A program made the position numbers. A stretch of 26,172 bases of DNA, taken from Candidatus Aenigmatarchaeota archaeon. GTDB lineage: Archaea; Aenigmatarchaeota; Aenigmatarchaeia; CG10238-14; SCSR01. The stretch covers positions 1 through 26,172 of the forward strand of contig JAWBTW010000010.1 in assembly GCA_039000165.1 (NCBI GenBank), written 5' to 3'. Position 1 is the first letter of the stretch, and each line of letters starts with the position of its first letter. Positions 6,001-9,000 of this stretch are shown here, piece by piece.

Positions 6001-9000
6001 GGTTAGAGCACTTCAGTTTAGCGGAGGCGAACCAACAGTAAGGGAAGATTTACCTGAGTTAATAAAATTAGCAAAACAAAAAGGTTATAAGCATGTTGAA
6101 GTCAACACTAATGGAATTGTGATAGCAAAGAAAGGAGCAGCATACATAAAAGAACTTAAAAAAGCTGGCATGAGCACTTTTTACTTGCAATTTGACGGTT
6201 TAAAACCTGAAATATACGAGAAAACAAGAGGTCTCAACTTGCTTCCCATAAAACAAAAAGTTATAGAAAGTGCAAGGGAAGCAGGTTTAGATAGTATAGT
6301 TTTAGTTATGACTTTAGTGGGTGGAGTAAATGAAGATCAACTTGGAGAAATTATAAGATATGGAGCAAAGAATTCTGACGTTGTGAGATGTATAAACGTT
6401 CAACCTGTTAGCATTACAGGTAGAATAGAAAAAAGTGAAAGAGAAAGAATGAGGATAACTCTTTCTGATTTCACTAGGCTATGCGAAGAGCAAACTTATG
6501 GACAAGTTAAGAGGGAAGATTTCTATCCTGTGCCTACAATAAACATCCTTGGAAAAATTTTGAACTATTATTTAAAGGGAGGAGAAAGGTATTATCCAGA
6601 GTTTACTGCTCATCCTCATTGTGGCTTAGCAACTTTTGTTTTCACAAAAGGAGAAAAGGTAATTCCCATAACCCATTACATAGATATAGACAAGCTTTAT
6701 TCTGAATTAAAAGAAAACCTTGAAAAAATAGAGAGAACAGAAGAAATTCCAAGTAAACTTAAACTCTTCTATACTTTTCTTAAAAACGCGAAAATAAAAT
6801 TCTTGTCAAAATTACCAAAGCTTTATCCTTTGTTAAGAAGTGGAAGCTATGAAGCTTCTGGGAAATTTATGAGAAGCTTGCTAATGATAGGAGGAATGCA
6901 CTTCATGGATCCTTACAACTTTGATTTAGAAAGAGTTCAAAGCTGTTGTATTCATTATGGTGTGCCTGATAAAAAGGAAAAAGCTAGATTAGTACCTTTT
7001 TGCACTATGAATTCTATTCACAGAGAGGCTATAGAGAAAGAGTTTTCAATACCTTTAGAGAAATATAAAACAATATAAGTTTATTTGACAAAAGGATTTA
7101 AGTGGTATTTATGGCACTTTGGCATGGAGAAAGAGGAAGAAAACCTACAGGAGGGCTAATTAAAGTAGCTAGAAAAAAGAAGAAGTATGAGCTTGGAAGC
7201 TTACCTACTTTTACAAAAGTAGGAAAAGAAAAAAGGAAAAAAGAAAGAGTGAGGGGAGGGGGAATAAAAATAAGAGCTTTTTCTGTAGAATTTGCTAATG
7301 TTTTTGACCCTAAAACAAAAACTGCGAAAAAGGTTAAGATTTTAGACGTTCTGGAAAATAAGGCAAACCCGCACTTTGTAAGAAGAGGTATAATCACTAA
7401 GGGTTGTATAATTAAAACTGAAATAGGAAAAGCAAAAGTTACTTCTCGGCCAAGTCAAGATGGAATAGTTAATGCTATACTGCTGGAAGAAGGATAATTA
7501 TTTATTTGTTTGAAATTTAATCTTAATTATGCCTTTTGGTCTTATTGAAAGATTAAGGAGGAAAGATAGTTCGGAAGAGTTTTCTAAGATTGAGAAAACT
7601 GAATATAAGTCAATACTTAATAATTTGTTAAATGAATTATATACTACAGTAAAAAATTGGAAAAAAGAAATAAGTGAAAGGGGCTACATTCCTTCTCAAC
7701 AAGAAAAAATATACTTGCAAGATTTAATGACAACTACCCGTAAAGCTTCTCGAGTTGCTTTTAATCTAGGCGATCAAAAACTTCAAGATTTGCTATTAAG
7801 CCTTTATGTGAATCTTAAAAAATTACCTTCTGCTAAGCATGTTGAGACTGTAAAAGAGATAGAAAAAGCTGTTGAAAAAATAATGGAACATTACAGGAAA
7901 AAACATAAAATAGAAGAAGAAAAACTAAAGAGCGAGATTCCGGGAATTTTTGTAGTTTTACTCATTTCTTTTCTTTTGTTCTTATTTGTTTCTTACGGAA
8001 GTTTTTCCTCAGGATATTTTGTTAAACCTTCTGATTTAATCTCAATTTCTTTGGTTTTTTCTTTTCTTCTTGCTTTTTCCGTGATTTTACTCTTAAGAAA
8101 TTTATGAATTTTTTTAGATGTTAGACGTCTAACAAAAGAAATAAATTACCTCTTCTCTATTTTTATTTAAATGATTGATGTTCATTGCCATCTTGAACAA
8201 GAAGATTTCTCGCAAGATAGAGATAAAGTTATAGAAGAGTGTAAAAAAGAGTTGAAAGCAATAATAACTTGTTGTGCCCATCCAAAAGATTTTGACTTAA
8301 CCTTAAGTTTAGTTGAAAAATACAAAGGTTTTGTTTTTGCTTGTGTAGGGATTCATCCTGAGTACATAAAAGAAATTTCTGAAGAAGAAAAAAATAATTT
8401 TATTGAAAAGATTAAAGCAAATAAAGATAAAATTGTTGGTATCGGAGAAACAGGCCTAGATTTTTTCTGGATTAAAGAAGAAAATTTCCAAGAAAAACAA
8501 AAAGCTCTTTTTGTTGAGTTAATAAATCTTGCAAAAGAATTAAACTTGCCTTTAATAATTCATTCAAGAGAGGCTTATGAAGAAGCAGTAAAAATTCTTG
8601 AGAAAGAAGATGCAAAAAAAGTTTTACTCCATATGTTCGGTGAAAATCATTTGGCTAAAAGAATAGTTGAGAATGGATGGTTTGTTTCTATGAATACTAT
8701 TGTTCTTAAAAGCAAGAAACATAAGAAAGTTGTTAGAGATGTACCTTTAGAAAGAATAATGCTCGAAACAGATTCACCATGGCTTGGTTTTGGAAAAAGA
8801 AACACTCCTTTGAGCGTGAAAATCGTTGCAGAAAAAATAGCAGAAATTAAGAAAGCTAGTCTTGAAGAAGTGAAGAAAATAACTACAGAAAATTCGATAA
8901 AATTTTTCAATTTGTTTTAAGCGATTAAAAAATTTTCTATTCCAACAATAGTTAAAGTTTTTGGCACAAAAGTAAAACCTTTCAAATCTTTATACCTTCC

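Follow-up and report, generated by a model that had tools for sequence, protein, structure and literature searches.

A repeated 16-bp palindrome in an Aenigmatarchaeota genome is most likely the binding site of a small Cas2-fold protein and accumulates where genes are gained and lost

The stretch of DNA analysed here (the window) comprises the 26,172 nucleotides of contig JAWBTW010000010.1 of a Candidatus Aenigmatarchaeota archaeon (GCA_039000165.1). It carries two copies of a 16-bp perfect palindrome, both reading TGTTAGACGTCTAACA, for which chance would yield 0.11 matches in the window even allowing three mismatches. The two sites and their flanking genes are listed in Table 1. The 192-aa gene to the left of the first copy, which has a weak, below cut-off match to DUF2207_C, is 97% identical in the sister genome G001, where this flank is exact up to the palindrome. 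The 36 bp separating the palindrome from the start of the TatD gene are wholly different from the 35 bp found there in G001. The 206-aa gene at the second site presumably encodes a thymidylate-kinase-like protein. Contigs from two sequencing runs (X5 and X7) have 2-bp insertions directly 3' of the copy at 20496, and the X7 contig, from another study, shows a 0.73-kb form of this site. The decayed copy alongside probably represents the remains of a palindrome-spacer-palindrome unit.

Table 1. Features of the two palindrome sites in the window
Feature	Position	Strand	Remarks
192-aa gene	7529..8107	+	left flank of first copy; ends 11 bp before 8119
16-bp perfect palindrome (first copy)	8119..8134	.	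probable binding site of 69-aa Cas2-fold protein; single copy, two in G001 around AcnX gene
TatD-family nuclease gene	8171..8920	+	right flank of first copy
206-aa gene	19785..20405	+	left flank of second site
Decayed 15-bp copy	20441..20455	.	40 bp left of second copy; visible in sequence
16-bp palindrome (second copy)	20496..20511	.	48 bp 5' of tRNA-Glu; two copies around 0.72-kb Yip1 gene in G001 and run X7
tRNA-Glu gene	20561..20635	+	right flank of second site

The whole genome (783 kb) contains 16 exact copies of the 16-mer and one with a single change, spread over 7 contigs; no near-copy has two changes and two have three. No palindromic 12-mer of the genome is more frequent than the core of the 16-mer, which has 16 copies as compared to 10 for the runner-up, an A and T only sequence. 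All copies are intergenic, though two overlap the stop codon of the gene ending there. In all these points we obtained what an earlier note on this DNA had stated, namely the count, the rank among non-AT palindromes and the intergenic location. Most copies lie 0-45 bp 3' of a gene end, and many lie 36-49 bp 5' of a start codon or tRNA. The relaxed pattern TGTTA-N-ACGT-N-TAACA had matches in 37 of the 118 genomes of the order and in one of the 253 genomes from elsewhere in the class, against 0-1 matches for its reversed control.

Comparison with 922 kb of G001, which took in all of contig C1 and 120 of the 139 kb of C2 and left out seven small contigs, revealed what happens at such sites. At three of them our genome has one copy and G001 has two around a cargo, as the earlier note had described: AcnX (518 aa, 1.7 kb) at C10:8119, Yip1 (202 aa, 0.72 kb) at C10:20496 and three ORFs (1.8 kb) at C6:44266. 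Its caveat of inexact junctions was borne out as well, one junction being exact or nearly so and the other differing over 10-225 bp. In these cases the palindrome forms one junction and flanking homology holds the other. The alignment contained 128 breaks, of which 100 were at least 200 bp long or were rearrangements; nine of these large differences touched a palindrome and 91 did not. When counted by locus, large indel events were found at 9 of 15 palindrome loci, as compared to 83 of the 656 remaining gene junctions (p=3e-5) and, among the longer intergenic ones, 57 of 267 (p=0.002), with duplicate rows merged by hand and the filter-dropped C10:20496 added on the palindrome side, and the other side left unmerged. 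Spare copies thus pile up where genes are gained or lost, but since so few of the large differences involve them, the palindromes are hot spots of gene turnover and not its main route. The shift in sequence identity at the sites was not larger than elsewhere (p=0.36), and the sites were therefore rejected as borders of homologous-recombination tracts. Homology between the 3' ends of ATPase genes accounts for the loss at C2:53584. A mobile serS cassette was ruled out, the repeat being a leftover of an ATPase 3' end.

A more precise case came from a related genus. G105 carries four copies around 2.3 kb containing a 491-aa gene and a ParE-type pair, where G107 has one copy with both flanks exact, and the pair records a two-sided palindrome-to-palindrome gain or loss. 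This is the one exact two-sided case, most others being one-sided, and the lack of any palindrome at the same locus in G103, G104 and G106 counts against a joining role. At another locus G105 and G107 share the flanks and two copies, with unrelated spacers in between. Short spacers between copies in our genome and in G005 proved to be fragments of AAA_14/DUF4143 genes, which are bracketed by copies at different loci in these two genomes as well as in G001, G012 and G106. The proposal that the palindrome is a recombination or target site for cassette exchange is thus partly borne out, by the enrichment at gain and loss, the exact event and the exchanged spacers, and is weakened by its small share in the large indels and by the mostly single exact junction.

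Three copies of the 16-mer surround a 69-aa Cas2-like ORF elsewhere in this genome (C1:79257-79466, minus strand, outside the window), lying 4 and 39 bp 5' of its start and 40 bp 3' of its stop. The earlier note had counted this ORF among the cargo; it is instead the likely cognate binding protein. Members of its family have 68-70 residues and occur in 63 of the order's 118 genomes, a single genome having as many as 16 genes, and in 3 of 253 others; no family gene was found in 55 of the 118. The taxa of the Atlas clusters nearest to the protein likewise point to Aenigmatarchaeota. A 50% library yielded 66 representatives at E<1e-10, nearly all of 40-100 aa. A family gene was present in 35 of the 37 order genomes with a TGTTA-type site as compared to 28 of the 81 without one, kin in these counts not being independent, and the only TGTTA-type match outside the order (G042) lies at the start of a family gene. 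Among 61 members, weak matches to Pfam Cas2 (24), PF20803 (31) and PF20229 (4) were obtained; the family scores under the Pfam Cas2 and TIGR01573 cut-offs, and a sequence search of solved structures gave weak Cas2 matches only (E 0.11-0.4). The predicted structure (pLDDT 95) has a ferredoxin-like fold with helix 1 at residues 14-26 and, as in Cas2/VapD, a conserved Asp after strand 1. Its best fold matches were Cas2 proteins (Foldseek E 6e-4 to 3exc; VIA Z 7.8, a middling value, rmsd 2.3, 67 aligned).

Each family gene tends to have a palindrome of its own. Among 60 genes with the full 52-nt upstream stretch, 38 carry a perfect 16-bp palindrome in it and 46 carry one with at most one mispair, leaving 14 without a near-perfect site; the corresponding figures were 1 and 2 of 59 for the downstream control and 2 and 7 of 766 for other ORFs of our genome. 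All follow TG-N12-CA, with the common frame TG-N4-A-N2-T-N4-CA, and those of paralogs differ (25 half-sites in 49 gene-site pairs). The palindrome begins -1 to +9 nt after the BRE/TATA 14-mer in all 47 scored promoters. The spot between TATA box and start is the place of a repressor operator in archaeal promoters, and a site at this position before its own gene, perfect in the 38 cases above, is a feature of an autoregulated repressor. The palindrome is therefore most likely the binding site of the 69-residue protein. The protein would act as a dimer, because the site is palindromic and Cas2 relatives are dimeric, and we consider it very probable that such a dimer binds the site and represses its own gene. 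The sites of other paralogs are multi-copy too. A site on the upstream side alone is the rule for family genes, and no palindrome is present at three empty sites of our genome; to judge from these sequences, the family gene itself thus does not move by site-to-site recombination. The alternative that the earlier note had left standing, an operator, thereby gains ground as the likely operator of the Cas2-like gene, but it does not exclude the cassette reading, and we join the two.

Gene control alone is an unlikely account of the remaining copies. The protein would then be a transcription factor or a block to read-through, extra sites would regulate or insulate their neighbours, possibly together with a second TFB, and clustering would arise only because new genes keep their sites. 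The autoregulatory position agrees with it, as do the placement of most copies behind gene ends and of many 36-49 bp before starts or tRNAs, and TFB2, the second TFB, adjoins a family gene in five loci. However, the offset of a site from the best BRE/TATA element is anywhere between 0 and 56 nt, most of these elements score weakly, and an activator at a fixed distance from the BRE was rejected on account of these varying offsets. Sites are in excess in gaps between convergent genes (12/48 vs 178/1438) but not between divergent genes (8/48 vs 410/1438), our genome and G001 sharing loci in both counts. The copy number of TGTTA-type sites ranges from 0 to 27 within one genus, 14 of the 18 site types of one genome (G119, described below) have no matching family gene, and near-perfect 16-mers would need copying, not point mutation, to arise.

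The diversity of paralogs made it possible to read how the protein might recognise its site. Mutual information between residues and bases peaked for residues 17, 18 and 21 with bases 3-6 and for residues 11 and 34 with base 8, and the peaks persisted after thinning to 35 proteins of <70% identity. Five rules were formulated with the data already in view and apply in 47-48 of the 49 pairs: Arg/Lys18 goes with C4, Trp/Phe/Leu21 with a purine at 4, Leu18 with A3, Arg/Lys11 with C8 and Gln17 with G6. We applied them to 25 held-out genes, 20 of them new additions and 5 taken from later loci; some are close kin of training genes. Six that lack Asp8 were left out of scoring, and a near-perfect palindrome was present in 17 of the remaining 19. 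The rules gave the right base at position 3 in 16 of these 17, at position 4 in 13, at position 6 in 15 and at position 8 in all 17, as compared to 11, 6 and 13 for the commonest base at positions 3, 4 and 8. Thus, helix-1 residues are predictive of palindrome bases, in held-out genes also. A tree-based test left 1-2 usable independent pairs for each rule, too few for significance; none of them ran counter to the rule. Near-identical proteins switch their site along with the helix (L123, L131, L153).

Neither XerA/IntI nor Cas1 follows the sites. The C6 copy lies 396 bp from the end of a XerA gene, in agreement with the earlier note, which had placed a Xer-like integrase (C6:43058) about 400 bp away. 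The G001 ortholog of this gene scored over the archaeal XerA cut-off (NF040815, 280.6 vs 220) and under that of the integron integrase (TIGR02249, 235.5 vs 265). XerA as the enzyme is not supported, as G030 (88% complete), with 26 copies of a site type whose own gene was not recovered, had no match to PF00589. A dif site is one 28-bp site per replicon; Xer/dif was ruled out by the 17-27 copies of the 16-mer and by G030. An integron was rejected too, there being no IntI-type recombinase over cut-off, no conserved second box in the flanks of 84 sites, which were not searched with an attC model, and, across 5 sources, only tRNAs from Rfam. Cas1 was present in 2 of 5 genomes, in ours on C19 with an array of its own and not beside the family gene, which ruled out CRISPR Cas1-Cas2 and casposons. 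Target-site duplications flanking single sites were not seen by eye, and terminal inverted repeats occurred in one cassette (AcnX, 12 bp), with no general pattern across the 84 sites. We therefore regard it as very improbable that the small protein is uninvolved and that a host recombinase (XerA, integron integrase or Cas1) or microhomology repair simply uses a repeated 16-mer. The proximity of XerA fits such a process, the one-sided junctions would be expected of an insertion anchored by homology and, more briefly, at a second point, and each half of the 16-mer matches the integron core GTTRRRY; yet numerous types of the family (TGTC..., TGAT...) depart from that core and still form arrays.

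The palindrome matches the parS consensus TGTTTCACGTGAAACA in 12 of 16 bases and differs at positions 5, 6, 11 and 12. The ParB_N domain (PF02195) was absent from all five genomes searched, ours included (88-93% complete), and was found in 10 of 14 controls; the earlier note was right that there is no ParB, and its likeness to parS loses its value as a clue to function. The four mismatched positions and the missing domain rule out ParABS. Thus, ParB, like XerA/IntI and Cas1, does not track the sites. A chromosome organiser comparable to ParB/parS, Noc/NBS or MatP/matS, acting in segregation or folding, is highly unlikely more generally. In its favour are the shared bases (parS as given in the accessible part of PMC7383237), the 15-30 near-perfect sites per genome and the fact that all 10 multi-type arrays of G119 fall in ~28% of the genome around the GC-skew minimum, a region chosen after the fact with the origin taken from skew. 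However, the sites of G001 are spread over 138-430 kb and 785-798 kb without clustering at the origin (again from skew only), the gene was not found in nearly half of the order, and specificity changes fast.

These arrays are a further property of the family. G119 (872 kb) has 37 perfect palindromes of the family type belonging to 18 types, as compared to 2 in shuffled DNA, and its family genes (three intact, one broken) cover four types, leaving 14 without a gene. As many as four or five types share one array, and some arrays lie between convergent genes. Of 38 neighbouring pairs that differ in type, 16 are separated by 1-6 bp, gaps that the joining role does not account for; the 20 same-type pairs keep a distance of at least 11 bp. 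A 34-bp block of two sites recurs at separate loci. One locus holds different types in G119, G124 and G118, a decayed one in G010, and none in three congeners in which the gene adjoins. Such mixed, packed arrays with orphan types would be expected of decoys, with a VapD-like nuclease silenced by site binding and genomes gathering sites to soak up incoming variants, as orphan immunity genes do. Asp8 and Ser35 are invariant in 61 aligned members and, in the accessible part of PMC10491678, are tied to nuclease activity in Cas2/VapD, and solo family genes are rapidly gained and lost. On the other side, all 17 copies of our genome belong to a single type, 6 of the 25 held-out members lack Asp8, family genes have no recurring antitoxin-like partner beside them, and neither the bracketing of cargo nor the exact event in G105 and G107 is accounted for; we hold decoy arrays to be quite improbable. 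Four of the six members lacking Asp8 keep an imperfect upstream site, and in the four genomes with one, all of one genus, it is single-copy, which speaks for the explanation preferred below.

On balance, we favour the explanation that a small Cas2-fold DNA-binding protein recognises the palindrome and that bound copies are joining points for gene cassettes. A two-fold symmetric dimer would read the half-sites with helix 1, residues 17, 18 and 21 contacting bases 3-6 and residues 11 and 34 the centre, and would repress its own promoter. New specificities would escape repression by resident paralogs, which would explain the fast diversification. Extra copies are seen between transcription units at up to ~30 places per genome, bracketing one to three genes and enriched at gene turnover. 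There, bound sites may be brought together or cut, and DNA ending in a site may be joined at a resident site, the other end often being fixed by ordinary homology. Later deletions would shrink cassettes to short spacers and eventually to packed arrays of the sites of past paralogs. The protein would either catalyse these steps through Asp8 and Ser35 or mark and pair sites for host enzymes. Of the two parts of this explanation, binding with autorepression is very probable and the joining role slightly more likely than not. A bolder form, in which the protein itself is a reprogrammable site-specific nuclease or recombinase, its dimer reading the palindrome by the helix code and cutting or joining at the centre or edge via the Asp8 pair, seems doubtful; it would amount to an integron-like system reduced to the minimum, with mixed arrays as a record of the paralogs that a lineage has met.

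The resulting picture, part integron-like array and part autoregulated repressor family, lies outside ParABS, integrons, Xer/dif and CRISPR adaptation by the features tested, and probably amounts to a self-repressing DNA binder whose sites serve integron-like cassettes. With Cas2/VapD (SSO8090, 3exc, and SSO1404, 2ivy, of Sulfolobus; BPSL1038, from the accessible part of PMC10491678) the family shares the ferredoxin-like fold, a DIP motif after strand 1, Q-x-S-x-W and Asp8/Ser35, but it is shorter, stands alone without cas1 or a CRISPR array and has many paralogs, each with its own palindrome. Related domains occur inside transcription regulators, as the central Cas2-like domain of PaaX (PF20803) and the N-terminal domain of ChrB (PF20229). 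ChrB, according to the accessible part of PMC3817168, forms dimers whose target is an inverted repeat within its own promoter region, its N-terminal half being the proposed DNA binder. Here, in contrast, the protein consists of this domain alone and lacks an HTH or sensor domain, and the sites are perfect 16-mers with many copies at cassette borders. Integrons, known in Archaea too as far as the accessible part of 10.1101/2022.02.06.479319 goes (IntI, attI, attC), resemble the present system in promoter-gene arrays, sites close behind gene ends, cassettes of defence- or toxin-antitoxin-type genes and empty or decayed units; they differ in the integrase, in the two-box folded attC as against a 16-bp perfect palindrome, and in that our loci are scattered with often one-sided junctions. 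ParB/parS and Noc/NBS are alike in the 16-bp palindrome and, in the accessible part of PMC7383237, in a specificity switched by few residues; the fold, the patchy and fast-changing distribution and the dozens of specificities set our family apart. Cyanobacterial HIP1, in the accessible sources, is likewise a repeated palindrome tied to DNA uptake and recombination, but it is an 8-mer of very high copy number linked to methylases, whereas here a 16-mer of 1-30 copies has a cognate protein family. The DNA-binding domains of papillomavirus E2 and of EBNA1 are ferredoxin-like dimers that read palindromes with helix 1; the likeness is one of principle, with no such entry among the fold matches listed.

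The Cas2-fold protein is undescribed: the literature searched, which excluded subscription journals and bioRxiv supplements, held no description of the system, no paper with the exact 16-mer or two of its cores, none on sequence-specific DNA reading by a stand-alone Cas2-fold protein and no match for packed arrays of different orphan sites. The data point to such reading by the Cas2/VapD fold. In 69 residues the family combines no fewer than 25 natural half-site specificities with a residue-base code that can be read, and it offers a small model of specificity change and possibly a tool. It also suggests how single genes may turn over in DPANN archaea, where little is understood of gene exchange. 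The protein-site family stands even if the recombination role fails.

The 27 CRISPR spacers of our genome matched none of the sequences compared. Five viral contigs carry the 16-mer; Pfam linked none of them to the Cas2-fold family, and no relatives of one family member were found in viral contigs. Of 15 neighbour pairs of asymmetric copies, 11 shared one orientation (p=0.06), near-identical genomes having contributed two of the pairs. In four fragmented relatives, 10 of 30 site-bearing contigs had a site within 200 bp of an end, as compared to 3.5 expected.

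Genome-wide comparison of the genome under study (G000) with its sister genome (G001) revealed a mosaic of identity, with blocks of 85-98%, and about 100 gene-sized indels separating the two congeners. Together these point to very high single-gene turnover between them. G000 carries a cas1 gene and a CRISPR array of 29 repeats on contig C19; no cas1 match was found in G001. Three tRNA-Leu genes were followed at their 3' ends by a short stretch and a palindrome in one genome, and by a 1.1-6.5-kb island devoid of palindrome in the other. The element integrated next to tRNA-Glu encodes a tyrosine integrase with a zinc ribbon, an MCM-type winged helix, a Cdc6-like ATPase and a HerA/TraD-like ATPase. 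It was missing from the corresponding site of G001, and no second att copy was found in G000.

The block comprising TFB2, the Cas2-like gene and a 112-aa gene was 93% identical between G000 and G106, a relative from another genus, as compared to a background of 68-77%, indicating its recent transfer. The copy binned with another relative, G139, matched that of G106 at 97% identity, and its presence there may reflect contamination of the bin. Genes of the Cas2-like family are also often lost, as shown by broken remnants in G001 (two) and in the relative G119 (one). A group of family genes adjoining homologs of G000 C6:29335 (loci L105, L106, L109 and L110) did not show a clear palindrome, and possibly represents a settled, non-mobile branch.

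Coordinates of palindrome-associated and mobile features
Feature	Location	Remark
Integrated element	window 20668-25968	begins 32 bp past tRNA-Glu
TFB2, Cas2-like and 112-aa gene block	G000 C1:78220-79761; L090; L095	
Broken family-gene remnants	G001 C1:344380-344535, C1:496180-496242; G119 C2:758821-759023	
tRNA-Leu sites with palindrome/island alternation	G000 C21:7212, C6:33177; G001 C1:161481	
Multi-type palindrome arrays	G119 C2 646-783 kb, C3 24-42 kb, C2 10-13 kb	
Tandem near-copies of palindrome, viral contigs	L045:4962-5016; L042:670-719	three; two
111-160-aa gene family	L274:1800-2204	homologs L282, L284, L286

All 10 multi-type arrays of G119 lay near its GC-skew minimum, opposite the XerA recombinase gene at 340 kb; such clustering was not seen in G001. 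Neither viral contig with tandem near-copies showed a family gene, and in one of them a weak HTH gene lay downstream of the near-copies; those of both contigs are perhaps unrelated operators. Palindrome arrays were often present directly 3' of the stop codon in the 111-160-aa family, which had no Pfam match, and likewise at DUF488 genes in G000, G001 and the relative G105. The AcnX cassette of G001 (L003:9438-11126) harboured 12-bp inverted repeats immediately inside both palindromes, the sole such case observed.
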